Of a stretch of DNA of 64,000 bases, positions 1,933 to 62,814 are shown in pieces. The notes beneath the pieces are model-generated. The model saw only the letters and a program-made list of their open reading frames with translations, had not been told where the DNA came from and did not search any database. Origin of the DNA: an uncultured virus (IMG/VR IMGVR_UViG_3300025120_014373). Taxonomy: Duplodnaviria > Heunggongvirae > Uroviricota > Caudoviricetes. Location of the stretch: the IMG/VR virus record IMGVR_UViG_3300025120_014373; one strand, written 5' to 3'. The translations under genes were made by a program, and so were the position numbers. Position 1 is the first letter of the stretch; every line of letters starts with the position of its first letter.

Positions 1933-2349
1933 ATGGCACTTGGAGATAACACAGCATTTTTTAACGAAACAACATTCCTATTAGGACCAACAAGCGTTGA
2001 TAACGGTATTTCAGGTTTAGATATTACAGCAATTGGAGGTGGAGCAATTGACTCACCTGCAGCTAAAGTTCTATTTACCGCGAAGGGTACAATATTAGGT
2101 GAAACCTTGCATTTAGGAAATATTAAAGACCCAGCTAGAGGTTTACAATTTGAATTCAAATTCGCATCTAGATATATTAATGATATAGTTTCTATCATAA
2201 CAGCAGATAGAGAAGCAATTCAAGTTACACTTCATGAAGATCTTTCAGCTGCTTCTATATCCACTTCACAGACATTTCAGTTAACAGCTAAAGGACCTAA
2301 TTCAGTTGGTCCAACATTAAGAAGATTAAATCAACTAGGTTACGTTTAA
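1933..2349 (+). CDS. Hypothetical late protein, possibly virion decoration
   Basis: TAAATA-5nt-ATG, own terminator, small-residue-rich sequence. Confidence 0.6.
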   Translation: MALGDNTAFFNETTFLLGPTSVDNGISGLDITAIGGGAIDSPAAKVLFTAKGTILGETLHLGNIKDPARGLQFEFKFASRYINDIVSIITADREAIQVTLHEDLSAASISTSQTFQLTAKGPNSVGPTLRRLNQLGYV

Positions 2350-2372
2350 GATTGAATAATATATTTTTTAAT

Positions 2373-2406
2373 AAAGATGCTTCTGGAAACGGAAGCATCT
2401 TTTTTT
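2373..2406 (+). terminator. Intrinsic terminator
   Basis: AAAGATGCTTCTG-GAAA-CGGAAGCATCTTT plus T run. Confidence 0.85.
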
Positions 2407-2409
2407 ATG

Positions 2410-2425
2410 GGAACAGTGATATAAT
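2410..2425 (+). promoter_or_regulatory. Putative early promoter GGAAC-N5-TATAAT
   Basis: GGAACAGTGATATAAT, 6 nt before ATG at 2432. Confidence 0.7.
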
Positions 2426-2431
2426 AGTAGT

Positions 2432-2878
2432 ATGATTATTGTTAACTGTAAGTTTAATAAGAACGCAAAGGAACTATTTAAGTCGGTTAATGTAAAGATT
2501 AAGGAACTGGAACGATTTACAAACTTTATATTAAATGAATATAAAGGAACAAGAAAGATCTGGAACTATGAATTGGTAATTAAAACTTTAGATTGCCATA
2601 CATCAGGTTATTATTTTGAATGTAATGAAATGGAAATAGGAACTAAAACTACAAAACGTTCCATAGCTAAGAAAAAGGAATGGTATCTTAGTTCCTATTT
2701 TCATGAGTTATGCCATTTTGCTCAAGATAACTTATATAAGGTTAAAGAGTCTAAATTAGACTATTCAGAAGCTGATGTGGCAAATTGTACTAACAAATAT
2801 TATAAAAACCCTATGGAAATACAAGCAAGAGAATTTGAAGATAAGTATACTAAAATCTATTTAGAATTATATTCTTAA
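2432..2878 (+). CDS. HExxH zinc metallopeptidase-like protein
   Basis: HELCH followed by NPMEIQAREFE. Confidence 0.7.
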   Translation: MIIVNCKFNKNAKELFKSVNVKIKELERFTNFILNEYKGTRKIWNYELVIKTLDCHTSGYYFECNEMEIGTKTTKRSIAKKKEWYLSSYFHELCHFAQDNLYKVKESKLDYSEADVANCTNKYYKNPMEIQAREFEDKYTKIYLELYS

Positions 2879-3267
2879 TCTGTTGGCCATAATCGAGCTT
2901 TCATATACTCGATATCTTTCTTTATTTCAGCAATATCAACTTCCATCTCTTTCATACTCTCTGTTATAATAACATCACCGTTTGAGGTTATCATATTGCT
3001 AATTAGCTTTTCAATTTTATCTACTAATGGTAATAATTCTCTTATTTCACTTTGATTTGTTTGAGCCATAAAACGTAGAGCTAGCATTTCAGTTTCTAAA
3101 TTACCAATTTTTAAAAAAATAATTTCTTGATCCTTTTCATATACTTCTTGTGAAACATAATTACTATTCAACCATAAAGCAGCTAAAGCTCCTACTGCAG
3201 CCAGAAAAAAAGTAGCAAAATTAATATTTTCCAAAAAGGACCGAAATAAAGTAATAGGCTTTTCCAT
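2875..3267 (-). CDS. Single-pass membrane protein with coiled coil
   Basis: Hydrophobic FATFFLAAVGALAALWL then heptad-like region; TAAATA 7 nt before ATG 3267. Confidence 0.65.
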   Translation of the reverse strand: MEKPITLFRSFLENINFATFFLAAVGALAALWLNSNYVSQEVYEKDQEIIFLKIGNLETEMLALRFMAQTNQSEIRELLPLVDKIEKLISNMITSNGDVIITESMKEMEVDIAEIKKDIEYMKARLWPTD

Positions 3268-3308
3268 TTTAATATATTTATTAAATTTTCTTATATTAAA
3301 TAATAATA

Positions 3309-3689
3309 ATGAGTGATCAATCAAATATTTTTAATCTTTATGAAAGTAATTTAAATCAATCAGCTATTGGTACTATGCAGCAAAGAGATCCTGCTAAAAA
3401 TTTAAAATATAGACCCGGTGAAGCATCTCCTGGTCAAGGTTATGCTCGATATAATGTACCAACTACTAATAGCGCAAAAGTAAAAGGAGCTCCTTTTGTA
3501 TCAAATGGTATAAGTGGTGATGAAGAGATGTTAATAAAAGGTTTTGGTGTTATTGATAGCAGCCAAGCAGGTAAATTATTAGATAGATTAAAGAATGATA
3601 TACATAAGTTAATTGATAAAAATGTAACTGGTTCAGTACTTAAAAGTAAAATAGATTTATATACATCTATTTTACAACAAACCACTTGA
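3309..3689 (+). CDS. Hypothetical late protein, candidate internal head protein
   Basis: TAAATA-6nt-ATG; N-terminal IFNLYE. Confidence 0.6.
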   Translation: MSDQSNIFNLYESNLNQSAIGTMQQRDPAKNLKYRPGEASPGQGYARYNVPTTNSAKVKGAPFVSNGISGDEEMLIKGFGVIDSSQAGKLLDRLKNDIHKLIDKNVTGSVLKSKIDLYTSILQQTT

Positions 3690-3713
3690 TTATTTTAATT
3701 CATATACTATAAT
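3686..3713 (+). promoter_or_regulatory. Sigma70-like promoter
   Basis: TTGATT-N16-TATAAT, 6 nt before GTG 3720. Confidence 0.6.
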
Positions 3714-3719
3714 TAGTAT

Positions 3720-4184: not shown

Positions 4185-4188
4185 TTAA

Positions 4189-5337
4189 GTGAGAGCTCGA
4201 CCCTTTTATTTTGAAATTAAAGATATGCTTACGCAGTTTGTTGCTGCGTTTGATGATATTGTTATAGGTAGATTTAATAGAGATAGAGTAGAGAAAGATA
4301 AAATTAATGTTAGATATGTTTATGCACCGAAACAAAGAGTATTATATGATTTAGTAAATGAAAATAAAACTTTAACATTACCAGTTGTATCTGTTAACGT
4401 AACAAATATATCTAGAGATGAAACTAGAGTTTTTAATAAGTTGGATGGGTTTTATTATCAAGCTAATATTGGAGAAGAAAAGGTATCTAGACATATTAAA
4501 ACACCGGTACCTGTTAATATAACATTATCAGTTTCAGTTTTAACTAGGTACCAAACTGATATGGATCAAATATTAAGTAACTTTGTACCATTTTGTAACC
4601 CATATGTTATTATATCATGGAAAATACCTGAAAAATTCAATTTAAGTGTCGATCAAGAAATTAGAAGTGAGGTATTATGGACTGGAGATGTTAGTATGAA
4701 TTACCCAACTGAATTAAATTCAAGTCAGAAAGCAAGAGTTACAGCCGATACATCATTTACTATTAAAGGGTGGTTATTTAAAGATACAGATAACCCATCA
4801 GGTAATATATTCTTTGTAGATAGTAATTTTCATAACGAAACTAAACTTGAATACTATGATAACTATGAATCATTATCAGGTAATACATATACATACCCTG
4901 CTTCTTCGATTATCGATGATAAAATTGAATCGTTTGAGTTATCTGGTTCACCTTTTATAACTGACATTTTCTATAATGGCGTATTACTTCAAGAAAATTT
5001 AACTATTGCTTCTAATACATCTGGTAGTATTATATTAAATGGTAGTGGCTTCGCAAATACTGAAACAGTACTATTTAGTACTAATAACCATACTGTTTAC
5101 ACTAATCTTACATCTGTATCTAATTTTAGTAGGCAGAGAGCAGTTTCAGGTCAGTCAATACCATTTACAATTTTAAATGATAATACTATAATTTTTAATA
5201 GTATACCAATCTCATCCGGAGATATAAGATTTATACCTTTAAATAAAGCTGGGTATGATTTTTCAGACTTTTCGTATATGGATACTTTATGTGGTAGGGG
5301 TTTGAGTAGTAATAGTACGTTTATTATAGTAGAATAA
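4189..5337 (+). CDS. gp15: Tail sheath stabilizer/terminator gp15 with C-terminal extension
   Basis: FVAAFDDI, YAPKQR, DMDQILSNFVP, FTIKGWLF pattern; structural context. Confidence 0.8.
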   Translation: MRARPFYFEIKDMLTQFVAAFDDIVIGRFNRDRVEKDKINVRYVYAPKQRVLYDLVNENKTLTLPVVSVNVTNISRDETRVFNKLDGFYYQANIGEEKVSRHIKTPVPVNITLSVSVLTRYQTDMDQILSNFVPFCNPYVIISWKIPEKFNLSVDQEIRSEVLWTGDVSMNYPTELNSSQKARVTADTSFTIKGWLFKDTDNPSGNIFFVDSNFHNETKLEYYDNYESLSGNTYTYPASSIIDDKIESFELSGSPFITDIFYNGVLLQENLTIASNTSGSIILNGSGFANTETVLFSTNNHTVYTNLTSVSNFSRQRAVSGQSIPFTILNDNTIIFNSIPISSGDIRFIPLNKAGYDFSDFSYMDTLCGRGLSSNSTFIIVE

Positions 5338-5353
5338 GTATTAAATAATAATA

Positions 5354-7096: not shown

Positions 7097-7100
7097 TTAA

Positions 7101-9506: not shown

Positions 9507-12500
9507 ATGCCTGCAGAGTGTCAAGTCAATAATATTGATATAGATTTAATTTATTCAAATACTATTGAAGAAAATATTATTTCTATTAATACAAAAAAAG
9601 AATTATTCTTTGATGTATATGAGTGTACTATAAACGATCAAAAATTAGTTTTAGAAAAGGTTGGAGATTCAGAATTAGGGCCAAAAGTTTTACTTGAAAT
9701 TAATATTGAAGGTAAAAAGTATTCTGCAGAAGCTATTTTAGTAGATAATGGTTCAACATATGTTGAATTGAATAAAGAAAATATATATTTTATTAGAACC
9801 ATACCAGATGAAAAAATAACCATAGAAGAAAGTGAAGTTGAAGATAGAGAAGTTGAAGATGAAACTTCAGATAATGTAGAGGTTAATTATGAAAATATTA
9901 TTGAACACCATGTCAATAATAAATTGGTTTTTCTTCACGAACTAGAAGAACAATTTGAAGAAAAGATTGTATCTTTAAAAGATGATATATCTAACAAGTT
10001 AGATTTATTTTTCGAAAAGTTAGAAGATAAAAAAAAAGTAATAGTTGAAGAAAAGTTAGAAAAAATAACTGATGATTTAAACGAAAAGTTTATAGTGCTT
10101 CAATCTGAACTTCAAGGTGTAGAAGATTTCAGTAAAAAAAATATCGATAATATTTTAGAAACCAAGATAAATGAAATCGATAGTAGTGTAAGTTTATTTT
10201 TAGATGGTATAACCAAAGAGTATACAAATAAAATTATATCTAGTGATAAAAAAATCACACATAATTTTTTAGAATTAAATTCTATAAAAGAAAAATTAAA
10301 AGAAAATAATAGCACAACAAATAAAAAATTTGAAGACTTAAATTCTTTAAAAGAAAAACTATTAGAACAGGATGAATTAGTTTTAAAGAATGAAGAACTT
10401 AAAAAATTTATTAATGAAGAGTTTAAGGGTATCGATAGTAAGTTTAAAAATTTATCTGAAGAGGAAAGTAAAAAGTATGATGAATTATTAGCTGCTTTTA
10501 ATAATAAAGATGTAGTTGAATATAAAACAATCTTAAAAGAAAAGATACAAGATGTCGAACTTACCCAAATAAAAGAGTCTTTACAGGAGGAAATCAGCAG
10601 TGCATTAAAAGGTGATATAGTTTCATTAAAACGTTACGTTGAAATGTCATCTGGCGGGGGTAGTGTGGCAAAACAATTCGCTGCTGGCGGTACAATGGAT
10701 GGGACTCTTAACGTTAATGGTAATATATTATCTGGAGGAACTAACTTAATTGATATTTTTAATTCTGATACTTTAATTAATTTACAAGATGTTACCGATA
10801 ATGGTAACACTACCACAAATATAATAAGCAGTAACAATACTATTATTGCTGATACTATACTTGCTACAAATTTATTATCTGCTACTACTTTGGATATAGG
10901 GTTCGAATTATCCGGTTTTAATGTTACTGGTAGTATATCTGCTAATGGTAATATATCTAGTGGTAGTTTAACTACTCCTGCTCTATCTACAGATGGTATA
11001 AATACAGAATTTATCGGTACTGTATCAGGTATTACCCAATCAATGGTAGGATTAGCTAACGTCTGCAATACCAGTGATGCTAACAAACCTGTTTCAACTG
11101 CTCAGCAGTCTGCGTTGAATTTAAAAGCTAATCTTGCATCACCAACATTTACCGATAGTGTAACGGTTGTAGGCAATTTATCAGCAAGCGGTAATTTATC
11201 TGGAGCTGATATTGTTGGTAATAATGTATTTTCAGGTGGTTTAGCAGTTTGTACATCTCAAACAATACCTACATTGCAAGCAGTTACCGATGAGGGTAAT
11301 ACAACTACTGGTAGTATTAATGTTGGTAGTTGTATTAATTTTGGAGAAAGGAATAGTAACGATATATTAATAAAAGCTGAAAGTGATAGCAGTGATTTAA
11401 CTTTATTTAGAGCTGCATCTGATGCAGACAGTGTAGGTATTGACATAAAATATATAGGTTCAGGCAATGGCGATGAAAATATATTTGAAATAGCGACTGA
11501 TGGTGGTGGTTCATTTAAGATGGATCAAAGCGGCGATGTAGGTATCAACACTGCACCTATAGATGGTGTTGGTTTAAATACGCGTAGTTTATCTTCATTA
11601 AGTTTATCAGCTAATAGTATATTTTCAGGTGGTTTAGCAGTCTGTACATCAGTACCAGCTCAAACAATCCCCTCATTGCAACAAGTTACAACTCAAGGGA
11701 ATACAACTACTAATAGTTTATCTATTGGTGATTTATCCGCTGGTAAGATTATTGGAGGATTCGCGAATAAAGCCCATGGAGTCAATGCAGCAGTGGTAGG
11801 TGGTATCAATAACACAGCTTCAGGTGCTAAATCAAGTATAGGTGGTGGTCAATCAAATGCAGCTACAGGTAATCAATCAAGTATAGGTGGTGGTTATCTT
11901 AATACAGCTGGTGGTAGTCGTTCAACCGTAGGTGGAGGTTATCGTAATTATGCGACTGGTCCTTATACTACTATAGCTGGTGGTAATTATGGTAGAGCTA
12001 CCGGTAATAATGCATTCATCGGCGGTGGCTATTATCAATTAGCCAGCGGTAATTTCTCTACTATAGGTGGTGGTATTTACGGTCAATCCACCGGGTACGT
12101 TTCAGTAATAGGTGGTGGTAGTGCTAACCGCGCGCTCGCGAATTGCTCTACAGTTGGTGGTGGTAGGACAAATTGCATCACCGCTCCCGCGATTGAGTCT
12201 GTTATAGCTGGGGGTAAGAATAATGTAGTAGGTTCAGGTAGTTTAGCGTTTGGTTGCCGTTCATTCATAGGGGGAGGAAATGGGAATCATATCTGCGCAG
12301 CTGATTCAGGTATTTTAGGTGGTATTAGTAATAGAGTTCTATCAGCTCACGCAGCCTCTTTTATTATAGGCACTGGTATAACGTCTAGTGCTGCATGTAC
12401 GACGTTTGTTAATAATTTAAGCTCTCAGGGTATAATAAATAGTTGTGTGATGACCTCAGAACAAGGGGTTAAAGTTGGTGGTGGTTCCATTTTTACATGT

Positions 12501-12779
12501 ACTGGATCTTTTTCACCATCGTTATCAGATAATGGTAAAACATTATTACTTGATACTACTAGTGGTTCAATTGTTGTTTCAGTCACTCCTCAAATATCCG
12601 GATTTGCTACAAGATATATTAAAGAAGCAGGAGCTGCTCCAGTTGTATTCAGTACCGGTACAGGTTTAAGTGGTCTATATAGTTATCAAGATAGAAATCA
12701 AATGAGTATTATATATGCACAGGCAGATATTTTCTTTAAGTCTGATAATTATGCGTTTTTAGGAGGTAATTTACAATGA
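9507..12779 (+). CDS. Fibre/adhesin: acidic coiled-coil N-terminus, beta-repeat shaft, YadA-like Gly-rich repeats
   Basis: E/K-rich first ~380 aa ending SSGGGSV; LQxVTxxGNTTT x3; many ~14 aa S-I/V-GGG-x-x-N-x-A repeats. Confidence 0.7.
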   Translation: MPAECQVNNIDIDLIYSNTIEENIISINTKKELFFDVYECTINDQKLVLEKVGDSELGPKVLLEINIEGKKYSAEAILVDNGSTYVELNKENIYFIRTIPDEKITIEESEVEDREVEDETSDNVEVNYENIIEHHVNNKLVFLHELEEQFEEKIVSLKDDISNKLDLFFEKLEDKKKVIVEEKLEKITDDLNEKFIVLQSELQGVEDFSKKNIDNILETKINEIDSSVSLFLDGITKEYTNKIISSDKKITHNFLELNSIKEKLKENNSTTNKKFEDLNSLKEKLLEQDELVLKNEELKKFINEEFKGIDSKFKNLSEEESKKYDELLAAFNNKDVVEYKTILKEKIQDVELTQIKESLQEEISSALKGDIVSLKRYVEMSSGGGSVAKQFAAGGTMDGTLNVNGNILSGGTNLIDIFNSDTLINLQDVTDNGNTTTNIISSNNTIIADTILATNLLSATTLDIGFELSGFNVTGSISANGNISSGSLTTPALSTDGINTEFIGTVSGITQSMVGLANVCNTSDANKPVSTAQQSALNLKANLASPTFTDSVTVVGNLSASGNLSGADIVGNNVFSGGLAVCTSQTIPTLQAVTDEGNTTTGSINVGSCINFGERNSNDILIKAESDSSDLTLFRAASDADSVGIDIKYIGSGNGDENIFEIATDGGGSFKMDQSGDVGINTAPIDGVGLNTRSLSSLSLSANSIFSGGLAVCTSVPAQTIPSLQQVTTQGNTTTNSLSIGDLSAGKIIGGFANKAHGVNAAVVGGINNTASGAKSSIGGGQSNAATGNQSSIGGGYLNTAGGSRSTVGGGYRNYATGPYTTIAGGNYGRATGNNAFIGGGYYQLASGNFSTIGGGIYGQSTGYVSVIGGGSANRALANCSTVGGGRTNCITAPAIESVIAGGKNNVVGSGSLAFGCRSFIGGGNGNHICAADSGILGGISNRVLSAHAASFIIGTGITSSAACTTFVNNLSSQGIINSCVMTSEQGVKVGGGSIFTCTGSFSPSLSDNGKTLLLDTTSGSIVVSVTPQISGFATRYIKEAGAAPVVFSTGTGLSGLYSYQDRNQMSIIYAQADIFFKSDNYAFLGGNLQ
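11227..11650 (+). repeat. 31 bp direct repeat pair (11227-11257, 11620-11650)
   Basis: TATTTTCAGGTGGTTTAGCAGT(T/C)TGTACATC, one mismatch. Confidence 0.9.
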
Positions 12780-14641
12780 TAGGAAGAACATTAGGACCAG
12801 CACCATTATCGACAACTAACGTTGCTAATTTTTATTATAAAAGACCTACAGAGTTTCTAGACTTAGCAGTTATACCTGCACCGGGTGTAACAGAAATGTT
12901 TACATTTTTAGTGGCAGTTCAACCAGAACCAGGTAATCAAACATATTTAGCAAATCAAATAACAGGTGCCCCATCCTTATCTGCTGTTAATAATGTTGCT
13001 ATACATTGTGATGTTCAGAATAGTGGTACATTTACCGTTGATTGGGGAGATGGTACTACTGAAGTATTAGCTCAAAATACTGACCACTTTCACGTTTATA
13101 ATTATGATAACTTACCAGCATCAACTGAGTTTAGAGGCTACAGGCAAGTAGTTCTATCAGGTTACCCTACTGATAGTAATAATAAATTCACTGGTATTGT
13201 AACAAATATCGACGGTCCATTTGAACCTGGTTATACAAGTGAAAGTACTAGAAACGGTTCTAATATTCTAGATATGGAAATAAGTAGTGGTAACGCTACA
13301 AATTATGCTATCGGTGGTAATGCCAGGCCACATAAAATGTGTGAAAGAGTTGCTTTATATAATACAACAAATAATAAGTTAACTACGGGGCAGAACGCGA
13401 TATATTCAGGTATGCAGTCATTACAAGAAATAGTAAATGTACCATATATGCATGTCGATACTACTGAAAGTCATCAAGAAGCATTCAGAATGTGTAGTAA
13501 GTTAAGATATTTACCAGATGACTTTGCTGACCCAGATAGGTATTGGTTCTGGAATTCTAGTAGCTTTTATCTATGTTTTGATAGCTGCTTTAAATTAGAA
13601 TATTTACCTGAAGGTATATTTACTAAACAAGGTACGCAGGCTGAATTAGCCAATGTGCAAGATTATAGATATATGTTTAGATATTGTTATCATTTATGTT
13701 ATATACCTGAACTACCTAATAGAACATCTGGTAGTCATATACATGTTAGATCAATGTTTCAAGATTGCCATTATTTAAAACGACTACCTACAAATTTCAG
13801 AGCTAATAATATAACTACCTCGTCTTCAGATGAATTACATTTAATGCTTTATAATACTTTACGTTTAGAAAATTTTAGTGATTGGAATTTATTAGATATG
13901 CCTTCAGCTTCTAAACAACCACGTTCTATAAATTGTGAAGGTTATATGTTTCAATGTGGTAGAGATGTCAATCAAATAGTACCGTGGACAGGTTTAGATT
14001 TAGATGTAATAAACAACGTAGCCGATTGCGGGACTTATAGCGTTGGCCCTTGGAGGATGGGCCGTGGTCCTCAATATTTTGCATCTGAGTATTATGAAAA
14101 AGGTTATTTAGATTTTACAAACATTACTGATTTACAAGACGGCTTTAATAGTAATTATTGTATAAAAGAGTATCCAATTTTAAAATTTAGTCCCAATACA
14201 ATGACTAATAGCAACGCTATATTTAGAATGATGTTCGGTAATAGAAGTTTAAAAACTATTACATTTTCAGGGTTTGATGTCGATGAAACTTTTGGAAATG
14301 GTGAGTATTATCAAATGTTTTATCAAAATTATTTACTAAGTAAAGTAATCGGATTACCTTTTAATGCTGCTAATGATAGTGGGGATTATTCTGGTTTGTT
14401 TAGTAACGCTTATAATGTTGCTAGTTTTGAATTCCCAGGATTATCATCTGATCAAACAGGCTTTAGTCAAAATATTAGTCTAAGATATTGTCCACTAGAC
14501 TTAGCTAATATAGAAAATATATTTAGATATCTTAAAACTGGTTCATTTACCATAACTTTAACTAACAATAATTATGCTGATGCTATACCAGCTGAAGTAG
14601 AAGCTATTGCAACAGATAAAGGCTGGACTGTAACACATTAA
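12776..14641 (+). CDS. Putative receptor-binding protein with PKD-like motif and BspA/DUF285-like LRR repeats
   Basis: VDWGDGT; recurring MFxxCxxLxxLP; terminal IATDKGWTV; overlaps fibre stop. Confidence 0.65.
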   Translation: MIGRTLGPAPLSTTNVANFYYKRPTEFLDLAVIPAPGVTEMFTFLVAVQPEPGNQTYLANQITGAPSLSAVNNVAIHCDVQNSGTFTVDWGDGTTEVLAQNTDHFHVYNYDNLPASTEFRGYRQVVLSGYPTDSNNKFTGIVTNIDGPFEPGYTSESTRNGSNILDMEISSGNATNYAIGGNARPHKMCERVALYNTTNNKLTTGQNAIYSGMQSLQEIVNVPYMHVDTTESHQEAFRMCSKLRYLPDDFADPDRYWFWNSSSFYLCFDSCFKLEYLPEGIFTKQGTQAELANVQDYRYMFRYCYHLCYIPELPNRTSGSHIHVRSMFQDCHYLKRLPTNFRANNITTSSSDELHLMLYNTLRLENFSDWNLLDMPSASKQPRSINCEGYMFQCGRDVNQIVPWTGLDLDVINNVADCGTYSVGPWRMGRGPQYFASEYYEKGYLDFTNITDLQDGFNSNYCIKEYPILKFSPNTMTNSNAIFRMMFGNRSLKTITFSGFDVDETFGNGEYYQMFYQNYLLSKVIGLPFNAANDSGDYSGLFSNAYNVASFEFPGLSSDQTGFSQNISLRYCPLDLANIENIFRYLKTGSFTITLTNNNYADAIPAEVEAIATDKGWTVTH

Positions 14642-16758: not shown

Positions 16759-18240
16759 ATGAATTCAATAAGACCTTCACAGGCTTATATCGATGAGAAT
16801 CGTGCGTCGCAACTACTTGAAAAGTGGGCTCCAGTTCTGGACTACACTTCAAAGAGTGTTGCTGCGATTGAAGATAGTCATACTCGTTTAAATACTGCTA
16901 TGCTACTTGAAAATCAAGAAGCTTGGTGTATTAAAGAAGCTGGACCCAACTACGTACCAACAAATGCAAATTCTGCTGGTCGTGCTGGTGCACTAGGTTC
17001 TGCTACATCTATCGGTGCTGGTTCTGTCACTAGTGGCACACCCGGACAAGATACATACGCAACGAATGACTTCCGTCTTCCAAAGATTCTTATCCCAATG
17101 ATTCGTCGTACTTTTCCCGAGTTAATTACAAATGAAATCGTTGGTGTTCAACCAATGGCGGGTCCAGTTGGCCTTGCATTTGCTCTTCGTTATCGTTACT
17201 CAGGTGAAACACTTGGTGATGGCATCGATGGTAAGTCAGCAGCTGGTAACTCTCCATCTGGCCAGGTTAATGCATTAGCAACTGCTGCTAATAAAGAAGC
17301 TGGTTACCAAGAGCTTATAACTAATTACACCGGTACATCTGCTGGTTATCTTTCTGGTAACTCAGAATTTGCAATCAGCAGTAATGATGATGGTGTAGCT
17401 GCTCTTCTTAGAAACTTCGAAGTAACGGGTAATATCCCTACTATGGAAGTTTCTTTCGAAAAGACAGCAGTTGAAGCTGGTACACGTCGCTTAGGCGCAC
17501 GTTGGTCAGTTGAACTTGAACAGGATCTTAAGAATATGAATGGTATCGATATTGATACTGAATTGACAAACGCTATGTCGTATGAAATTCAGGCCGAAAT
17601 CGACCGTGAAATGCTTATGAGAATGATTCAGGTTGCTCTTAATGCAGGTACCGGAATTGGGTACTCTACATGGAGCCCTGCTTCTGCAGATGGCCGTTGG
17701 CTAGTAGAACGTAACCGCGACTTCTATCAAAGATTAATCGTAGAAGCTAACCGTATCGCAGTGAGAAATCGCCGTGGTGCAGCTAACTTCATCGTTGCAA
17801 CACCTCGTGTTTGCGCTATCTTGGAAATGCTCCCTGAATTCCAGTGGGTACCAGTCCAAGGTAATGTCAATACACAACCTGTAGGCGTTGCAAAGATCGG
17901 TAATCTTGGTGGTCGTTTCAATGTATACAGAGACACACGCACAGAGGGTCAAAAGATTGGTAACAGTCTTAACGTTTCTGCGAATGATGCCCCTGAATAT
18001 GCATTACTTGGTTACAAGGGTCCAGAGTTTTATGACACTGGTATCATCTACTGTCCATACATTCCAGTTATGGTTCAGAGAACAATTGGTCCTAATGACT
18101 TCGCGCCACGTGTAGGCTTGCTTACACGTTATGGTGTCGTAGACAATATCTTCGGAGCAAATCTCTATTACCACGTTATCATTGTAAAGGGACTCGGCGA
18201 AGCGTTCACACCAGGTACTAACTCGGTGTACTTCGGCTAA
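16759..18240 (+). CDS. gp23: Major capsid protein
   Basis: LLEKWAPVL, GVQPMAGPVGL, ELEQDLK, EIDRE, YCPYIP, TRYG. Confidence 0.98.
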   Translation: MNSIRPSQAYIDENRASQLLEKWAPVLDYTSKSVAAIEDSHTRLNTAMLLENQEAWCIKEAGPNYVPTNANSAGRAGALGSATSIGAGSVTSGTPGQDTYATNDFRLPKILIPMIRRTFPELITNEIVGVQPMAGPVGLAFALRYRYSGETLGDGIDGKSAAGNSPSGQVNALATAANKEAGYQELITNYTGTSAGYLSGNSEFAISSNDDGVAALLRNFEVTGNIPTMEVSFEKTAVEAGTRRLGARWSVELEQDLKNMNGIDIDTELTNAMSYEIQAEIDREMLMRMIQVALNAGTGIGYSTWSPASADGRWLVERNRDFYQRLIVEANRIAVRNRRGAANFIVATPRVCAILEMLPEFQWVPVQGNVNTQPVGVAKIGNLGGRFNVYRDTRTEGQKIGNSLNVSANDAPEYALLGYKGPEFYDTGIIYCPYIPVMVQRTIGPNDFAPRVGLLTRYGVVDNIFGANLYYHVIIVKGLGEAFTPGTNSVYFG

Positions 18241-18300: not shown

Positions 18301-18375
18301 TCAATCATAAAAAGATACATAAACAGTATAGCATATTACACAACATACTATAGTCCACATTATATATTCATTCAT
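18301..18375 (-). CDS. Putative 24 aa hydrophobic microprotein
   Basis: MNEYIMWTIVCCVICYTVYVSFYD; TAATG overlap with queF stop. Confidence 0.45.
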   Translation of the reverse strand: MNEYIMWTIVCCVICYTVYVSFYD

Positions 18376-19304
18376 TATTGCTTTGACGTTTTAATGTGGA
18401 CAGCTTCTGGATCAATAAGATTAGCAGCATACTTCTCAATTAGATCTTGACTTGAAGCTCTAACAGGGTTAATATCGATACCCCCTCTACGAGCATATAA
18501 GCACATTACTAGTAGCTCAGATGGATCGAAAGCATCTTTTAATCTTTTATAGAAACACTCACATATCTCTTCATGAAAATGGCACTCATCTCTATATGAT
18601 ACGACATAATTCTTAATACTATGGGCATCAATAGCAGTCTTTGATTTAATATATATAAATACATCCCCCCAATCAGGCTGTGATGTAACACGGCAATTAC
18701 TTTTTAATAGACCAGAATAAAACTTTTGCTCTAAATCTCTTTCACGAATAACACCTTCTAATAAACCAGGATCTTCTGTATATTGAGTATATACAAAATC
18801 TTTATCATCATTGAGTAAATCTACATTATGGTAATCATCAATATCCCATTCTCTATTAGGACTATCAACCTTCTCATTAACCTGATGACCATCTTGGAAT
18901 TTAACTTGTACATCGGTCTGTAATATTCTACTTAGATCTTTACTTGCAGTATTTTCAAATGCAAGAACAGCTTTATCTTTATCAGCTGCCATTTTAGTCA
19001 TATTAAAAGAATTAAAGTATAATTTAATACTCTTACTTTCAACGATATACTTACTACTACAAGAGTAAATACACTTTACAACACCAGTTACAGGGCGTCC
19101 ATTATCTAGAAGGAATGAACATTCATATGCATTCCACGTATCAGATCCTACGAAAGGTAAATCATCATCGAATATATTTAAATATACTCGATTATTACTA
19201 CGAGGTTCTCTTACAAGCAACCCAGAATCATACGCACTCTTATATTGAGACGTTTGACCTAAATGCTTACTAATTCTACTATTATCTAATTCTTTATTTG
19301 CCAT
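18375..19304 (-). CDS. queF: NADPH-dependent 7-cyano-7-deazaguanine reductase (bimodular QueF)
   Basis: QueF motif VESKSIKLYFNSF, catalytic CRVTSQPDWG, FHEEICE, YARRGGIDINP. Confidence 0.95.
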   Translation of the reverse strand: MANKELDNSRISKHLGQTSQYKSAYDSGLLVREPRSNNRVYLNIFDDDLPFVGSDTWNAYECSFLLDNGRPVTGVVKCIYSCSSKYIVESKSIKLYFNSFNMTKMAADKDKAVLAFENTASKDLSRILQTDVQVKFQDGHQVNEKVDSPNREWDIDDYHNVDLLNDDKDFVYTQYTEDPGLLEGVIRERDLEQKFYSGLLKSNCRVTSQPDWGDVFIYIKSKTAIDAHSIKNYVVSYRDECHFHEEICECFYKRLKDAFDPSELLVMCLYARRGGIDINPVRASSQDLIEKYAANLIDPEAVHIKTSKQ

Positions 19305-19848
19305 AATTATCTACTATATTATAAATTGTTTTCATACGATTATCAACTGAACCACTTAACCTAATTACATTAATATTATAATGGTCAATTGCTTCTTCAA
19401 ATAAGTTAACTATAATATCACGAAACTCTTTATTTACACTACGCTCACCATCATCAACTAAGGGGATATCAGGTTCTGTATATAGTATAATATCCAATTC
19501 ACCAATCAATTTCTTAAAGAGATACTCACTATAATTATACACCTCTTTAGATACCTTTTTCATATGATATTGATATGTAGTATATATAAATCCATCTAAA
19601 ATACATCTATCTAATACTACATCTTTACCTTTAAAGTCAAAATAATTATACATATGACTATTAACAGTTAAAAGTTGAGTAAATTCGTCCCCATTTTCAT
19701 TAATATCTAGTTTATATTTCTTTTTTAAACCTCTAGTTATTTCCGGTACAAAGTTAAACTTACGAAATCTTTCATTAGTTTGTAATTTAGCAAGTAAAGT
19801 AGATTTACCTGTACTTTGAGCTCCTGTAAAACTAATAACCATGACCAA
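19294..19848 (-). CDS. P-loop nucleotide kinase-like protein (AAA_28/NadR-like)
   Basis: Walker A GAQSTGKST, DRCILD, DDGER. Confidence 0.8.
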   Translation of the reverse strand: MVMVISFTGAQSTGKSTLLAKLQTNERFRKFNFVPEITRGLKKKYKLDINENGDEFTQLLTVNSHMYNYFDFKGKDVVLDRCILDGFIYTTYQYHMKKVSKEVYNYSEYLFKKLIGELDIILYTEPDIPLVDDGERSVNKEFRDIIVNLFEEAIDHYNINVIRLSGSVDNRMKTIYNIVDNYGK

Positions 19849-20623
19849 TTATATCTTTAAAACTGTTAACGTTATATTCTATGTCTTCCATCTGTGTATC
19901 TGTAACCTTATGATCAATTAAATCAGCTAACATAATTGAAGGTTTCTCATTTAATCCTAGATTACCAGTATATCTAAGTTCCTTAATACCAGCAACCACT
20001 GGGTTAGAGGTATCTACTGACCTAATAGTTTTATCACCTACATAGTTTTTAAACTCTTTTGCAAATGAACAACCTAATAGATGGTGAGGTTTCTGATTAT
20101 TCCAAATACCATCTTTCTTTAATTGTTCTATTAATCTACGACGACCATCGCACCATCTTTCTAGTTTTGATTTACCTTTACCAGTAACTATATAGTAGCT
20201 AAAGTCAAAACTAATTGCAATATAATCAGCATTTTCTGACATATAAGTATAACAATCTACTATTTCATCGTATGTCTTACCTTGAACTGCTCCTATCTTT
20301 AAACCAGGTAGCTGTGTATACTTATTAGTAAACTCATGGAAACTTTTTATAGTTGCATAACCATCTTCTAAAACATCAGGTACAATATAATAAGAAGGTC
20401 TAAGTTCCTTTACATATTTAGCAAATTTACCTGGTTCAAAAGATTCCCCAAGTTCAAAAATACTATTATCTAAGAGAACTTCTCTACCTATTTTTACACT
20501 ATTCTTAAAATAGTCATAATACTTAGGATGGGTTTCAAATAAATGTACTAAAGCATAATCGTAATCATTATACAACTTAGATTTATCTAAAATACTAATC
20601 GGGCTTTCATGAGATACTAACAT
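19832..20623 (-). CDS. TGT/DpdA-like TIM-barrel protein
   Basis: LLDNS, VPDV, AVQG, HLLG, SVDTS correspond to TGT-fold motifs; in operon with queF. Confidence 0.7.
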   Translation of the reverse strand: MLVSHESPISILDKSKLYNDYDYALVHLFETHPKYYDYFKNSVKIGREVLLDNSIFELGESFEPGKFAKYVKELRPSYYIVPDVLEDGYATIKSFHEFTNKYTQLPGLKIGAVQGKTYDEIVDCYTYMSENADYIAISFDFSYYIVTGKGKSKLERWCDGRRRLIEQLKKDGIWNNQKPHHLLGCSFAKEFKNYVGDKTIRSVDTSNPVVAGIKELRYTGNLGLNEKPSIMLADLIDHKVTDTQMEDIEYNVNSFKDIIGHGY

Positions 20624-54798: not shown

Positions 54799-55428
54799 TT
54801 AAGCTTGACGTAATAATATTTTGTATATAGTACCGCCTAAGTTTACATTAAAAGTATGGCTAGCGGATAAATCACTAGTAGCAGCTGCTGTCATGGTAAA
54901 TTTATCAGTAACAGCAGATGTTGGAGCAAGTACTGTTGCATTATCTATACCTAAAGCAGATGCCGAAGCTAGTACTGTTGATATACCCTCGACATCGTCA
55001 GATAATTCATCTAATTCAGCAGATAAACCAAGTTGTACAGTACTGACTATATTAACATCTGTCCGTATAGCATTTACCACAGACACATTCGTTGCAGCTT
55101 CAGCTATAGCAGATACAGTTACGATATCAGTTATATTTTCATCTACAACAGCGGATATTGCGGTAATCTTTGTTGTAGATCCAACACTACTGGTCTCTAA
55201 AGCAGCAATACTCGCAGCATTTGTATCTATACTACCGGATAAAAAATTTATATCTAATGTATTAAGTGCATCATAAGCTGATAATGCAGTTACATTATCA
55301 CCGACTAACGATGCAAATGTAATTTTTTTAGATTCATCTGTTTGTACATCTACAATATAAAGTAGGTCATCACTATCAAAATTAAGTGGTGGTATAGTAG
55401 GTAATTCTGTTAATTTTCTATTTGCCAT
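54799..55428 (-). CDS. Small fibre-like virion protein
   Basis: N-terminal KLTELP..DLLYIVD..SKKITF, then coiled coil. Confidence 0.65.
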   Translation of the reverse strand: MANRKLTELPTIPPLNFDSDDLLYIVDVQTDESKKITFASLVGDNVTALSAYDALNTLDINFLSGSIDTNAASIAALETSSVGSTTKITAISAVVDENITDIVTVSAIAEAATNVSVVNAIRTDVNIVSTVQLGLSAELDELSDDVEGISTVLASASALGIDNATVLAPTSAVTDKFTMTAAATSDLSASHTFNVNLGGTIYKILLRQA

Positions 55429-55552
55429 TTTATGTTACTTGGGTTAATACTCCGCTTAAAAATGTTAATGTAGTACCAGATATTACAACATCTCGAGATA
55501 AACCTGTACCTATTGTACCTTCAATATCATCAGATAATTCATCTAATTCAGC
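54998..55552. repeat. 23 bp exact repeat (54998-55020, 55530-55552) in two paralogous genes
   Basis: TCAGATAATTCATCTAATTCAGC, within the shared peptide VQLGLSAELDELSDD. Confidence 0.9.
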
Positions 55553-55831
55553 TGATAATCCAAGTTGAACTGAACATAATATTCGAGTAGTGGTTGTTAA
55601 AGGACCTACGTTAATATTAGCAGATTCAAAGGCACCTGAAAGGTCAAGTACTGTACTTTGATTTGTATCAACATTAGTGGTTAACGTGGTAATATTATCA
55701 TTAACCCCGCTAAGTAGATCTTGAAAGGTTATTTTATTAGAAGTACCTCCTGATGCTTTAACAATGTACAATACATCGCTGTTACTTGCAACAGTTATAG
55801 GAGTTAAATCTGATACTTTTGTATCTGCCAT
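55430..55831 (-). CDS. Small fibre-like virion protein, paralog of 54799..55428
   Basis: KVSDLTP..DVLYIV..SNKITF; shared 15 aa block. Confidence 0.65.
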   Translation of the reverse strand: MADTKVSDLTPITVASNSDVLYIVKASGGTSNKITFQDLLSGVNDNITTLTTNVDTNQSTVLDLSGAFESANINVGPLTTTTRILCSVQLGLSAELDELSDDIEGTIGTGLSRDVVISGTTLTFLSGVLTQVT

Positions 55832-55859: not shown

Positions 55860-58241
55860 TTAAACTAATTCGTTAAAATCTGTACCTGTTTTTGTTGCGT
55901 AGAAATTAACTAATATAAACTCTGCAGCTCTTGTAGGCTTTAAATAAATATCAATTCTTAATTCATTTGCATCGATAATATCTGGTGTATTATTTCTTTC
56001 ATCACAAATAATTAGATAATCAAATAAACCTTCTGTATTCTTAACATCTTCAAAAATAGGTGTCAATGTATTAACTACTCTTGTTCTCGTTAATAATGTG
56101 TTTGGTTCAAATATAAAGTTTCTAACTGTATTCTTTGTAGCTTTTTCTAGATATAAGAATAAACGTCTAACATTAATTCTATCAAATGCACTTGGAAGTT
56201 TTTGCAACGTCTTTTGACCAAACACAACTGGCCCTTCGACTGGAAATGATGGAATTGGGTTAACAGATATCTTATATAGTTGATCTCTTTGCTTCTGTGT
56301 TGGGAATAATGCTAAACCAGCTGCTCCAGTTAATCTACCTCTTGCAAAACCTGCTGGTGCAAACCATGGGTCAAAATTAGCATCTGTATTAGCCATGATC
56401 GAAGCAAGATAACCAGATGATGGGCAATAAGATAAACCACCATATAATGTATCATTACTTTGTACCCATTGACCATATGTCGCAGCATAACTAGAATTAA
56501 CTTGTGAACCAAATGCTTTTATCGGGTTAAGTACATCTTTAGAAAAGTTCTTATTATTATCTTGTAAAGTTAAGAAACTTTCCCCTTGAACAAAAATTGA
56601 TCTCGGTAAATCGGCAATAAAAATATGATCTTTTCTTCTAAATTCTGCAAATGTTACAAATCTAGTTATAACATCATTCCAATAACCTCTATACTTGGAT
56701 GCTTCATCGCTTAGTCCTGTATTTTCCGTTCTTGTTGTTCTAAAACCACTGATAGCTTCTATATGGGTTGTATCGTCATATGATTTAGAACCCAATGTTT
56801 GCACTGATGAGTGAATTGTTGATAAACCACCATCGACTGTAATATCAATGTCAAATCTTTCAGTATTTTCAACTGTGTCTAATAGGCGATCTAATTTTTT
56901 AGGAATGTTACCAATTACTTTATTACTAAGATCTGTATCAGCATATGAACCTAAAGCAAATAAACTATTAGTAGTACCTGGTAAGGTATTTGTTTGTACT
57001 GAATCGACTAGTGCACTAAGACCACCTTGCGTATTAGTAGTACCACCATATGCTGCTGATAAAGTGGTCCAATTATTAGTTAAATCTTTTGTTCTATTAG
57101 TTACCAATCTAATCTTAGTTTTAGGTATACCATCTGCATCTAAATATGTTGATTTATTTCTATTACTCAAGAAATCATTAACCATTATATCCATTGTTGG
57201 TAATTGATTCTCAGTTTCAATTCTGAATGGTAAAGGTTCACCACCTTGAGGGTCATTAATACGTCTATGGTAATCTGTCGAACCAACTACTGTTTCTTCA
57301 AGATTTAGAGTTAATTTAATTGTATTATTAGTAGCTGGGGTAACGGCTAATCTAAATAAACCTATCGATAAAGTATCATCGAATTGATTTGTTGATATAT
57401 CATAGTCAGTTAAATTTTCCATTTGCTCAGATATACTATTATCATTAGCTCCAAATGTATCTACATTATTACTACTTTTCGCTGAAAGTATATTATCTAA
57501 CCTAGTAGAAGGCAAGTTAATAAACGTTTCAGTTTTTAAATTTAATGCATTACCACTTATTGCATTGGTAAGTGTTTGAATATCTATGATCCCATCAAAA
57601 TTTGTCGCTGGGTTTAAATTTGTATTATCAATAGCACCTAAATAGAACCCTTGAAAAGATTGGTCAATTGTTGTCTGAGCTTTATTAACGACTAGAAATG
57701 CTGCTTTACCAAGTGATGCTAAAGTACCAAAGTTTGATGCTGTCTCATCTATCCAGTCAAAACCATTTTTTTGCTGGATTTTGAAATATGTTTCTTGGTC
57801 AATTGTAAAATGTTCTGGTTCACCTATTAATACTGTACGTGTACTACTAACTGCTCCAGTATTACTAAAAGTTGATAATGCTGTTGATGAGCTGGCTGCA
57901 TCATCAATTGAAATCGCAGATGCAGGGTATGCTAATACACTATAATTATTACCGAATCCAACCCCTCTATCTTCACCGTAAGGCATTCTATAAACAAATA
58001 CATTTGCTGGGCTATTAAATAAAGCTCTGGCGGTACTTGATAGATATAACTCTGCTGGTACCGTTGGTTCACCGTAGATATCGGCAAACTCACTACGTGA
58101 AGTTACTTGAATAACTTCATCGGTAGGTCCTTTATCAGCAAAACCTGTAATTAAAACGTTTGTACCTGCAGGGACTACAGGTCTTATAGATTGATCGATT
58201 TCTCTAATTTCTACTCCGGGAGATTGAATTGTACGTGCCAT
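55860..58241 (-). CDS. gp18: Tail sheath protein
   Basis: SPGVEIREID, WFAPAGFARG, FDRINVRRLFL, FIFEPN, KPTRAAEFI. Confidence 0.96.
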   Translation of the reverse strand: MARTIQSPGVEIREIDQSIRPVVPAGTNVLITGFADKGPTDEVIQVTSRSEFADIYGEPTVPAELYLSSTARALFNSPANVFVYRMPYGEDRGVGFGNNYSVLAYPASAISIDDAASSSTALSTFSNTGAVSSTRTVLIGEPEHFTIDQETYFKIQQKNGFDWIDETASNFGTLASLGKAAFLVVNKAQTTIDQSFQGFYLGAIDNTNLNPATNFDGIIDIQTLTNAISGNALNLKTETFINLPSTRLDNILSAKSSNNVDTFGANDNSISEQMENLTDYDISTNQFDDTLSIGLFRLAVTPATNNTIKLTLNLEETVVGSTDYHRRINDPQGGEPLPFRIETENQLPTMDIMVNDFLSNRNKSTYLDADGIPKTKIRLVTNRTKDLTNNWTTLSAAYGGTTNTQGGLSALVDSVQTNTLPGTTNSLFALGSYADTDLSNKVIGNIPKKLDRLLDTVENTERFDIDITVDGGLSTIHSSVQTLGSKSYDDTTHIEAISGFRTTRTENTGLSDEASKYRGYWNDVITRFVTFAEFRRKDHIFIADLPRSIFVQGESFLTLQDNNKNFSKDVLNPIKAFGSQVNSSYAATYGQWVQSNDTLYGGLSYCPSSGYLASIMANTDANFDPWFAPAGFARGRLTGAAGLALFPTQKQRDQLYKISVNPIPSFPVEGPVVFGQKTLQKLPSAFDRINVRRLFLYLEKATKNTVRNFIFEPNTLLTRTRVVNTLTPIFEDVKNTEGLFDYLIICDERNNTPDIIDANELRIDIYLKPTRAAEFILVNFYATKTGTDFNELV

Positions 58242-60561: not shown

Positions 60562-60568
60562 CTCGCTA

Positions 60569-60578
60569 TAAATATTTA
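60569..60578. promoter_or_regulatory. Palindromic late-promoter box between divergent genes
   Basis: TAAATATTTA gives TAAATA on both strands. Confidence 0.6.
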
Positions 60579-60579
60579 C

Positions 60580-61461
60580 ATGACTCGAGTAAATACTCTA
60601 ACCGAAATATGGGATACATATAATAATAATATATTATCTGAAAATGCACCAGGTGTTAAAGCAGCTAAAATGGGCACTAAACCAGGTAAACCACCTGTTA
60701 AGCCGAACGACGTGAAAAAAGGTTTTGCAAATGATAAATCGTCTGGGCCAGAAAATGCTGAAAAAGGAGAAACATATGCCAATGTTATTGACCCTAAACA
60801 TAATGGAGTTCAAGATGAATTATATAACAGTGAAATTTATTCTTCTGAAAAATATAACAAAAATGATAAGAAAATAGAGAAAAAAGTAAAAGAGAGTATA
60901 AATAATTATATGAAATCTACTTTTGATAAACTTTTTGAAAATGTTATGGGTGAAGAAATGCATCCCTCTGATAACGAAACACAAGAATTAGACGCTCTCG
61001 GTATTGATACTGAAGTCGATGATGAAACCAGTGAGGGTGATGTAACAGTTACACTTGACCGTGAAATGGCTAAGGCACTTTGCGACGTATTACAAGCAGC
61101 AATGGGTGATGAAGATGACGGCGAAGATGACGGCGAAGAAGAATATTCTTCAGAAATGGAAGAAGATGGTTTCAATAGTTTTGAAGAAGCTGAAGAAGAC
61201 GATGATGATGATGATGAAGACACTCATAAGGAAGCAGTAGAAATGCAAGCAGTGCCTGATACAGCTGGTACAAATTTAACCCATCCAGGTCATAACAAGG
61301 TTGGTAAGCTCAAAGCAAAAGGAAAGAAAGCATCTGATTCAACTAAAAAGTATGTTGATGCAGAACCGAAACCATTAGCTGATGGAAAAGCAGCTCTTCA
61401 AAGTAAACAAAACAAAGTACATAGCACAGTGACAAGCTCAACTGGTGACTATATTCAATAA
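60580..61461 (+). CDS. Acidic hypothetical late protein, candidate prohead core/internal protein
   Basis: TATAAATA-5nt-ATG 60580; long D/E tract; terminator downstream. Confidence 0.7.
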   Translation: MTRVNTLTEIWDTYNNNILSENAPGVKAAKMGTKPGKPPVKPNDVKKGFANDKSSGPENAEKGETYANVIDPKHNGVQDELYNSEIYSSEKYNKNDKKIEKKVKESINNYMKSTFDKLFENVMGEEMHPSDNETQELDALGIDTEVDDETSEGDVTVTLDREMAKALCDVLQAAMGDEDDGEDDGEEEYSSEMEEDGFNSFEEAEEDDDDDDEDTHKEAVEMQAVPDTAGTNLTHPGHNKVGKLKAKGKKASDSTKKYVDAEPKPLADGKAALQSKQNKVHSTVTSSTGDYIQ

Positions 61462-61478
61462 AAAATAGATTTAAAATT

Positions 61479-61514
61479 AAAAGCGCAATCATTAATTTGG
61501 TTGCGCTTTTTTTT
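61479..61514 (+). terminator. Intrinsic terminator
   Basis: AAAAGCGCAATCA-TTAATT-TGGTTGCGCTTTT plus T run. Confidence 0.85.
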
Positions 61515-61528
61515 GCTTAAATATAATT

Positions 61529-61873
61529 ATGATAAAATTTCATAAGTTTTTTGAAAATAAATACCAAGGTCCTAAACCTGGGATTAATCATAGACATAGA
61601 AGAGCAATCCCCGGTAGTAGTGGAAATTCCCGGTACTTACGTAAGCATGAAAATATTGTACCTGATTATGTGAAAACTGACCTAACTAAGAACCCAACAA
61701 TAGAACAACTACGAGGTGTTACCGGTAAAAAAGTTTGTGGTTCTGCAGATTTAGAATATATACGTAAAGAATATAAAGTTATACCGTTTAAAGGGGAAGT
61801 TAAAAAATTAGGTAGTACCGGTATAAAGTTATATTTTGATGAAAAATTAAAGAAATTTGTTTTAGAAAAATGA
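61529..61873 (+). CDS. Basic hypothetical late protein
   Basis: TAAATA-5nt-ATG; starts MIKFHKFFE. Confidence 0.65.
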   Translation: MIKFHKFFENKYQGPKPGINHRHRRAIPGSSGNSRYLRKHENIVPDYVKTDLTKNPTIEQLRGVTGKKVCGSADLEYIRKEYKVIPFKGEVKKLGSTGIKLYFDEKLKKFVLEK

Positions 61874-62814
61874 GTCAAATAGATTACAGTTGTGATTACC
61901 CTGGTATAGTGCAGACCGATGAAACTTGTTATAGATTTACCGATAAATCAATTCAAGCAAGTGAACGTATACTATTCTCTAATTGGTGGAGAGAACAAAT
62001 AAATCAATTTGGTGTTAAAGTAAATTATTACGTTAATACATATAATACACTAAGTGCAGATAACTTTTACGGTGAACAACCTACACAGACTTTTGCAGAT
62101 CCAAGAAAAATTACTTTAGCAGTTACGTTAAATGAAAATGCAATTACTTTATCTAAATTTGGTTTTGAGAGTGACGATGAAGTAACTGCATATATTCATA
62201 TATCTTCTTTTTATGATGAATTTTATACATTATCTTCAGTTTTTGAACCTTTTGGTTCTGAAAATATTGTAAATGGTAAAATACCTGAAGGTATTTATGA
62301 TCGATATTTTCATTTCGGTCCAATCGTAGAGCCAAAAGCTGGTGATGTTTTTGAACTAACTGAATATGGTAACGATAGACCCAATAATAGACAGTCTAAA
62401 TTTTTCGAAATTACTGAAAAATTAGATCAAGATATATCCCAAATTAATAATTTACAGGGCCATTATGTATTTTTATTAAAGGCAAAACGATTAGATTATA
62501 GCTTTGAACCAAATATAGATTTCAATGATGTTAAAAATGATGTTAGATTTGCCGATATGTCTACCGATACAAGTCGGTTATCAGATCTTGCGACTGAAGA
62601 TTTATATACTTTACAAGCTGGTTTATCATCAGGTGGGGAAAGAACCAATGATCAGGTTTATGAAGACAAATTTGCTGGTAGATTACCCGGTACAAACCCT
62701 CCATCATTACCAAAAAGAGAAGATTATGAATTATATTCAGCTGATAATACCAGTAAAGAAGACGTTTTTGATATGTCAAGTAATGATACTGATGTATATG
62801 GGGATTATTATTAA
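61870..62814 (+). CDS. gp14: Neck protein gp14
   Basis: EQINQFG..V.YY, FYGE, LSKFG.ESDDE, P.AGD. Confidence 0.82.
   Translation: MSQIDYSCDYPGIVQTDETCYRFTDKSIQASERILFSNWWREQINQFGVKVNYYVNTYNTLSADNFYGEQPTQTFADPRKITLAVTLNENAITLSKFGFESDDEVTAYIHISSFYDEFYTLSSVFEPFGSENIVNGKIPEGIYDRYFHFGPIVEPKAGDVFELTEYGNDRPNNRQSKFFEITEKLDQDISQINNLQGHYVFLLKAKRLDYSFEPNIDFNDVKNDVRFADMSTDTSRLSDLATEDLYTLQAGLSSGGERTNDQVYEDKFAGRLPGTNPPSLPKREDYELYSADNTSKEDVFDMSSNDTDVYGDYY

Follow-up and report, generated by a model that had tools for sequence, protein, structure and literature searches.

A Leu-Ser-small tripeptide enriched in outer virion proteins of an uncultured T4-like phage family: a candidate serine O-glycosylation sequon

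Virion genes of the window and the proteins carrying the motif

The window analyzed here is the first 64 kb of the 119,419-base uncultured virus record IMGVR_UViG_3300025120_014373 (designated G000; 29.7% guanine plus cytosine (GC), estimated to be 56% complete). It encodes virion genes of a T4-like phage, of which portal, gp21, gp23, sheath, terminase, gp15 and gp25 were identified by Pfam, and gp6, gp13, gp14 and tube by PHROGs. We found that the tripeptide Leu-Ser-Ala/Gly (LS[AG]) is about fivefold over-represented in the outer virion proteins of this phage and its relatives, across many unrelated folds. A first-pass annotation had proposed a surface-modification sequon [LIV]-S-[AG], confined to exterior proteins and coating the whole virion; the motif is better written L-S-[A>G>S], and the evidence supports a short serine motif that is under selection throughout the family and carried by a specific set of outer virion proteins. 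The family is regarded as uncultured because the closest named phages, cyanomyoviruses, share only 33-35% capsid identity; viral contigs abundantly hold relatives with 68-100% capsid identity, and 18 related records (G001-G018) were read whole. Paired counts are written throughout as observed/expected or observed vs expected, and "distant homologues" are proteins at most 65% identical to those of G000, thinned at 80%.

The fibre-like protein of 1090 residues at 9507-12779 (plus strand; phrog_24919, tail fibre) contains 12 [LIV]S[AG], the first at residue 408, and 9 LS[AG] (expected 1.6), all beyond residue 407. On the minus strand, a small coiled-coil-like fibre of 209 residues (54799-55428) has six [LIV]S[AG], comprising four LS[AG] plus ISA/VSA, with hydrophobic residues 49, 63, 91 and 105 in one heptad position and Ser directly after; its 133-residue paralogue (55430-55831, minus strand) has five, including four LS[AG] (expected 0.25). 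Among the baseplate-region proteins, [LIV]S[AG] and LS[AG] occur five and four times (0.4 LS[AG] expected) in a 912-residue protein (24148-26886, plus strand), four and three times (0.2 expected) in a PKD-domain protein (29219-29989, plus strand), nine and eight times (0.9 expected) in a 1325-residue protein (33584-37561, minus strand), and six and four times (0.6 expected) in a 788-residue protein (37635-40001, minus strand). A fifth, of 656 residues (31609-33579, minus strand), has a single LSA here and 21 vs 4.2 across the family. Two further putative virion proteins carry eight [LIV]S[AG] with six LS[AG] (1.4 expected; 960 residues, 40005-42887, minus strand), and two LS[AG] with no enrichment in distant homologues (4 vs 3.2; 621 residues, 12776-14641, plus strand).

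In the tail sheath (55860-58241, minus strand), five [LIV]S[AG] lie at residues 228-497 and none in 498-793; three are LSA, of which those at 253 and 395 are conserved in relatives, and the C-terminal Pfam domains (581-783) contain none. The gp15 tail terminator (4189-5337, plus strand) has two LSG and one VSG (residues 229, 251 and 319) in an extension past its Pfam core (10-222), and the gp14-like head closure protein (61870-62814, plus strand) has an LSA at residue 61 whose Ser is kept in 12/12 homologue segments. The major capsid protein gp23 (16759-18240, plus strand) has two sites, both in variable-looking segments. L198-S199-G200 (17350-17358, plus strand) falls in a loop with varying flanks in the stretch corresponding to the T4 gp23 insertion region, which we take to be on the outer surface in T4; VSA 406 lies within a 15-residue insertion relative to T4. 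LS[AG] is retained in the capsid loop in 96/119 distinct relatives, amid variable flanks, and extra LS[AG] sites arise in neighbouring capsid loops of relatives.

Recounting gave zero [LIV]S[AG] in gp17, gp44, QueF, gp21, gp22, the tube (54218) and the putative tape measure (50111). These results reproduce the hand counts that the first-pass annotation gave for eight proteins (9507, 54799, 55430, 29219, 33584, 40005, 37635 and 24148), as well as its descriptions of the motif-free first ~380 residues of the fibre, of the sheath C-terminus and gp15 core, and of the two capsid sites. The two S74-chaperone tail-fibre tips (29986 and 30750; 29986-31604, minus strand) are exterior, yet have no LS[AG], and the gp6 baseplate wedge (27394-29217, plus strand), taken as a negative control, has none either.

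Motif statistics, selection and turnover

LSA was the top tripeptide of all tested, both in the genome (34/10.0; 135 of 140 called open reading frames (ORFs) kept, five doubtful ones dropped) and in the 53 window ORFs with per-protein composition as the null (32/6.6; log10 p -12, about 1e-12 against 8000 tripeptides). With the same correction, LS[AG] reached 57 vs 15.4 and [LIV]S[AG] 89 vs 40.1, so the proposed enrichment persists after correction for composition. LSG (25/8.8), LSS (26/11.8) and ISG (16/8.3) were also raised. The Leu part of the proposed sequon is thus supported, and its Val/Ile part is not, ISA (7/6.0), VSA (3/4.5) and VSG (6/6.0) being near chance. Local Ser/Ala/Gly/Leu composition was ruled out as the cause by block shuffles of 15, 30 and 60 residues (300 each), in which LS[AG] averaged 16-17 and never exceeded 31. 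Under a dipeptide (Markov-1) null, LSA remained clearly significant (32 vs 10.8), and LSG weakened (25 vs 17.8, p 0.06). Residue order matters, because LAS, SLA, SAL, ALS and ASL each stayed at 7-11 vs 6.6 in the window. Outside the window, LS[AG] was at chance (7/8.1). TS[AG] was not enriched in G000 (17 vs about 14), and [ST][GAS]S was mildly above expectation (81 vs 52.5). Since the 57 sites stand against ~940 serines in the carrier proteins, the motif can be called dense only in a relative sense. Two known motifs were set aside: the N-glycosylation sequon N-x-S/T (292 vs 278), and the lipoprotein lipobox, [LVI][ASTVI][GAS]C, with no LS[AG]C among the 57 sites and LAG at 6 vs 5.8.

That the signal reflects a DNA-level word (a binding site, restriction avoidance or codon-pair bias) or chance is extremely improbable. 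TTA-TCA-GCT is the commonest coding (7/57) and TCN serine codons make up 45/57, as a DNA word would have it; only the coding frame, however, is enriched (57 vs 15.3), the other five frames match the codon-shuffle expectation (antisense frame 27 vs 30.4), the sites spread over 32 different 9-mers with both TCN and AGY serine codons, and the TCN share ranges from 0.43 to 0.74 across ten relatives with no consistent bias. A frame artefact is excluded by this coding-frame restriction and codon diversity, and chance is opposed by the window p value for LSA and by repetition of the result out of sample.

In distant homologues, LS[AG] counts were 421/76.5 for the outer class (159 proteins), 36/58.0 for the inner/assembly class (222 proteins) and 43/46.2 for other genes (276 proteins). 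Portal (0/4.4) and gp6 (2/8.7, 22 homologues) look depleted, and counts stay close to expectation in the S74 fibre tips (5/4.8) and gp5 (8/8.4). The claimed confinement to the exterior therefore holds as a class contrast, but does not extend to every exterior protein. As an independent check on the choice of the outer class, relatives' proteins without a homologue in G000 gave 213/51.6 when Ser+Thr+Gly was at least 24% and 42/52.3 otherwise (not repeat-collapsed), with 34/51.6 for the reordered control SL[AG]. Internal repeats are insufficient as a cause, since one protein per each of 422 clusters still gave 126 vs 81.4, a count to be read knowing that one single-linkage cluster took in 471 proteins, most outer families included.

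The excess is clear in G001-G005, G009, G010 and G012-G018. G006 and G008 include only a small part of the tail region; the few outer orthologues they have give 4/1.4 and 4/1.0. G011 is weak (13/10.4 whole, 6/2.8 in outer orthologues; its subclade 9/4.3), and G007, a 31%-complete fragment of a distant 59% GC phage with a 32% identical capsid, has no excess (19/15.8).

Conservation of the motif Ser was 0.61 against 0.46 for its flanks (+0.15; 48 sites with at least five homologue segments), as compared with 0.47 and 0.52 for other serines (-0.05; n=915; p 5e-9). The flanks of motif sites are thus more variable than those of other serines, and the sites lie outside conserved cores. Half-motifs (n=179) resembled other serines, and motif Ser differed from them with p 2e-6. 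Turnover is considerable: the outer orthologues of 11 relatives contain 279 sites, of which 85 coincide with a G000 site in the alignments and 194 are unshared, 78 of these being at aligned positions that have no site in G000 and 116 in stretches that cannot be aligned (18 expected). In 104 outer orthologues of 10 relatives, the middle position of L-x-[AG] was enriched for S (5.5x), then T (1.8x), with others at most 1.2x; at the first position L (5.5x) was followed by V and A (both 2.0x), and at the third A (6.5x) led G (4.6x) and S (2.7x). Pro and Lys were avoided directly after the motif. The preference for S, then T, points to hydroxyl chemistry.

A structural preference without modification, in which Leu is buried, Ser is exposed and the small residue sits at a turn or strand end, the arrangement being inherited and recurring in fibre and beta-rich proteins, is improbable in our judgement. 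The heptad register of the sites in fibre 54799, a capsid L-x-G that is nearly invariant while its Ser changes, and LS and SG dipeptides that are themselves raised, with LSG not significant under the Markov-1 null, would suit such a preference. Against it, no LS[AG] excess is seen in equivalent proteins from the structural regions of T4, S-SSM5 and phAPEC8 (10/10.4, 18/17.6 and 15/9.6), the motif recurs in coiled-coil, PKD, sheath, capsid and beta-fibre contexts and in lineage-specific proteins, repeat-collapsed counts stay high, and Thr, Asn and Asp do not replace Ser at comparable rates. The helix N-cap or hydrophobic staple pattern is L-S-P/E-x-E; its signature was not seen in G000, with LSP at 3/4.4, LSE at 8/7.6, and E/D/Q at S+3 in 7/57 vs a background of 15.5%. 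Taken together, the tripeptide is very probably a selected tag that is read by some factor.

Sugar enzymes and candidate readers of the motif

The first-pass annotation had seen no modifying enzyme, which holds for glycosyltransferases within the window but not for the genome. Searching the remainder of G000, as it had advised, revealed by Pfam a GT2 (105433), a DXD glycosyltransferase (115070) and a GT2_5 (76889), and by PHROG, Atlas and fold a GT-B transferase of 405 residues (86663) between DNA polymerase and gp46; its model has a predicted local distance difference test (pLDDT) score of 83, and its best fold matches are GT4-like (Z 23-24.5). The GT-B had no sequence match among solved structures. 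Further sugar genes outside the window encode dTDP-glucose dehydratase-like and RmlD-like (69236) proteins, epimerases, DegT, deacetylases and a nucleotide-sugar dehydrogenase. Glycosyltransferase and sugar-pathway genes are present in the genome and core to the family: GT-B, the GT-A-like GT2_5, RmlD-like and an amidotransferase occur in 7/7 large relatives, as does a second GT2 outside the partial G000 record, and the remaining sugar genes are patchy. The near relative G013 has a cassette of GT47, GT7C, a nucleotide-diphospho-sugar transferase, GT90, a sulfotransferase and a formyltransferase (30 of its 62 unmatched proteins were scanned). A core that stays constant beside a decorating cassette that varies would be more in keeping with glycans on protein than with one mark on DNA.

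Several genes around this set deserve mention. In the core GT-B gene of G012 (72604-74042) and G014 (115633-117015), a gap of ~200 bases separates the first ~55 residues from the remainder, which may reflect an intron or a split gene. A DUF366 gene (L284:1547-2131 in G013), outside the partial G000 record, is found in 7/7 large relatives and two fragments. Six radical SAM genes cluster with the GT2 and sugar enzymes (G000 101556-108975) and are mostly shared only with the nearest relative. By tblastn, 139 phage records matched the GT-B, and among the best 30 of the 139, phAPEC8-type phages lead at 24%; GT2_5 and the core GT2 had no matches among phage records. The POGLUT/Rumi-type GT90 was rejected as writer, being found only in G013 (L291:4127-5140), in 0/5 other relatives and not in G000.

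Our preferred reading, which we hold to be rather better supported than not, is that L-S-[A>G>S] is a selected serine O-glycosylation sequon. The motif (weakly also L-T-[AG] and V-S-[AG] in relatives) would be an acceptor that selection maintains in the variable, outward-facing regions of the capsid, neck, sheath, outer baseplate and fibre proteins. Most probably a phage-encoded glycosyltransferase would recognise Leu before and a small residue after the Ser, and would O-glycosylate it in the cytoplasm, likely while the protein is folding or before it folds. Lineage-specific glycans would then be built by accessory transferases and by sugar-modifying enzymes that differ between relatives. We infer the enzymatic nature of the reader, the addition of sugar, its encoding by the phage, the timing and the exposure of the sites. 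The earlier picture of a selected sequon thus survives for a serine motif in outer proteins, and "coating the whole virion" is too wide, because some exterior proteins carry no motif and the Val/Ile variants are unenriched in G000.

We more tentatively propose that a large aquatic T4-like phage family might run its own sequon-directed O-glycosylation, in which the L-S-[AG] serines of capsid, neck, sheath, outer baseplate and fibres are primed by a core transferase that leaves receptor-binding tips and assembly interfaces untouched, a variable transferase/sulfo-/formyltransferase cassette builds a lineage-specific coat, and other clades use other tripeptides. If so, glycosylated virions would be predictable from sequence alone through a three-residue sequon on most outer proteins, the large glycosyltransferase sets of many uncultured aquatic phages would be explained, and a small enzyme that O-glycosylates serine in the cytoplasm, together with its minimal tag, would become available.

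Less probable, at roughly one chance in a handful, is a selected tag whose reader adds a non-sugar group (phospho-, phosphoglycerol- or acyl), comes from the host, or binds without catalysis, as a chaperone or decoration protein would. Every sequence statistic fits any Ser-directed reader; G000 has four cytidylyltransferase-like genes, a GNAT and the six radical SAM genes; DUF366 is core to the large relatives; motif density does not keep step with the core transferases; and host-encoded modification of a phage tail protein is reported (PMC13445384). On the other side, the genes for cytidylyltransferases, GNAT and radical SAM enzymes occur unevenly among the large relatives (most in 0-3 of 7), whereas three transferases and RmlD are universal, and the preference for Ser over Thr points to hydroxyl chemistry.

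The sequon reading itself also has to be set against several observations that count against it. The related genomes are not independent samples, and the outer class was drawn knowing G000's own counts. In the capsid loop motif, conservation is higher for L (0.98) and G (1.00) than for S (0.88, the lowest), and 23/119 capsids are without LS[AG] there, most with L-x-G, one subclade being relaxed; for these reasons the site is partly structural, and the alignments show a structural L-x-G core combined with a constraint on serine that goes beyond folding. The capsid model is too poor to read exposure (mean pLDDT 53.7; residues 192-198 below 50). Since T4 AGT and a serine-rich-protein transferase both match the GT-B at Z 20.0 (GtfA 17.6; best 24.5), the fold search cannot separate DNA from protein transferases. 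The core transferases lie among replication genes, and modified DNA is a possible acceptor because a DpdA/QueF system is encoded. The presence of core enzymes does not track motif density, as G011 keeps all three with its weak 6/2.8, and no motif-free, enzyme-free relative was found for a co-occurrence test, the G007 fragment being uninformative. phAPEC8, the nearest cultured GT-B homologue (24%), shows no LS[AG] excess (15/9.6), and was consequently rejected as a cultured model.

The 7-deazaguanine genes that provide this rival acceptor context comprise QueF, a kinase-like ORF and a TGT/DpdA-like ORF (19832-20623) at 18375-20623 on the minus strand, and QueC, an amidotransferase and FolE2 at 79417-82063 and 117560-118612; QueE/QueD-like genes occur in relatives. 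Long Thr-Pro-Thr-Pro mucin-like tracts in large lineage-specific proteins of G001-G004 and G011 may be a second O-glycosylation substrate, and are not among the top tripeptides of G000. As to the host, a GT-B search gave no match among bacterial genomes, and capsid matches fall in four metagenome bins from different groups, which is uninformative. One of the contigs, L379 (118,691 bases, in a Bacteriovoracaceae bin), is a family member with a 68% identical capsid and was likely co-binned, so it is not host evidence. A 62-residue protein (G000 115727-115915) matches the histone H1-like Hc1 family and is a possible host clue.

Comparison with known glycosylation systems

To our knowledge, virion glycosylation in tailed phages has so far been described mainly for mycobacteriophages. 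Freeman et al. 2023 reportedly found mycobacteriophage virions to be glycosylated by phage-encoded glycosyltransferases; this work is cited in PMC12619734, PMC10877033 and PMC12582341. No phage virion sequon or account of a Leu-Ser-small motif was found in the literature within reach, which excludes most subscription journals, and literature on phAPEC8 glycosyltransferase function does not describe the motif. The analogy with mycobacteriophages, drawn by the first-pass annotation, holds in that a tailed phage has its own glycosyltransferases and a putative sugar coat on its particle proteins. Mycobacteriophage glycans lie at the C-termini of capsid and tail-tube subunits (summarised in PMC12619734), and in this respect the analogy fails: the motif is absent from tube 54218, and the capsid site falls at residue 198 of 493. 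Here a tripeptide defines the sites, which are internal, numerous within single proteins, and spread over at least a dozen of them.

The general O-glycosylation sequon of Bacteroidota is D-(S/T)-[AILVMT] and acts on exported proteins. It is likewise a tripeptide centred on Ser/Thr but differs in its first residue, and in our data it is at chance (71 vs 72.4). T4 alpha and beta DNA glucosyltransferases resemble the GT-B in their place among T4-like replication genes and in fold (Z 20.0 and 16.5); however, they act on hydroxymethylcytosine DNA and leave a peptide motif unexplained, and several non-DNA GT-B enzymes score higher. Pond-water fibrils with heavily O-glycosylated Ser-repeats have been attributed to eukaryotes (bioRxiv 2025.09.30.679562). 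Giant viruses glycosylate capsids and fibrils autonomously, with atypical sequons on capsid proteins, and resemble the present family in virus-encoded transferases and nucleotide-sugar pathways; their hosts are eukaryotic, and chlorovirus glycans are N-linked to Asn, unlike the candidate Ser acceptor here (PMC9614988).

The PF01973 profile, which we take to be the Maf domain, matched none of six genomes (G000 and five relatives), and a single profile may miss divergent Maf enzymes. In flagellin O-glycosylation by Maf (Aeromonas, Campylobacter), PMC9290775 describes no fixed consensus, unlike the present motif. The same source describes hydrophobic residues (Leu/Ile) preceding the glycosylated Ser/Thr and cytoplasmic O-linkage on exposed, variable filament domains; the hydrophobic residue before the acceptor is matched here by Leu at -1 (5.5x) and, in relatives, Val (2.0x).

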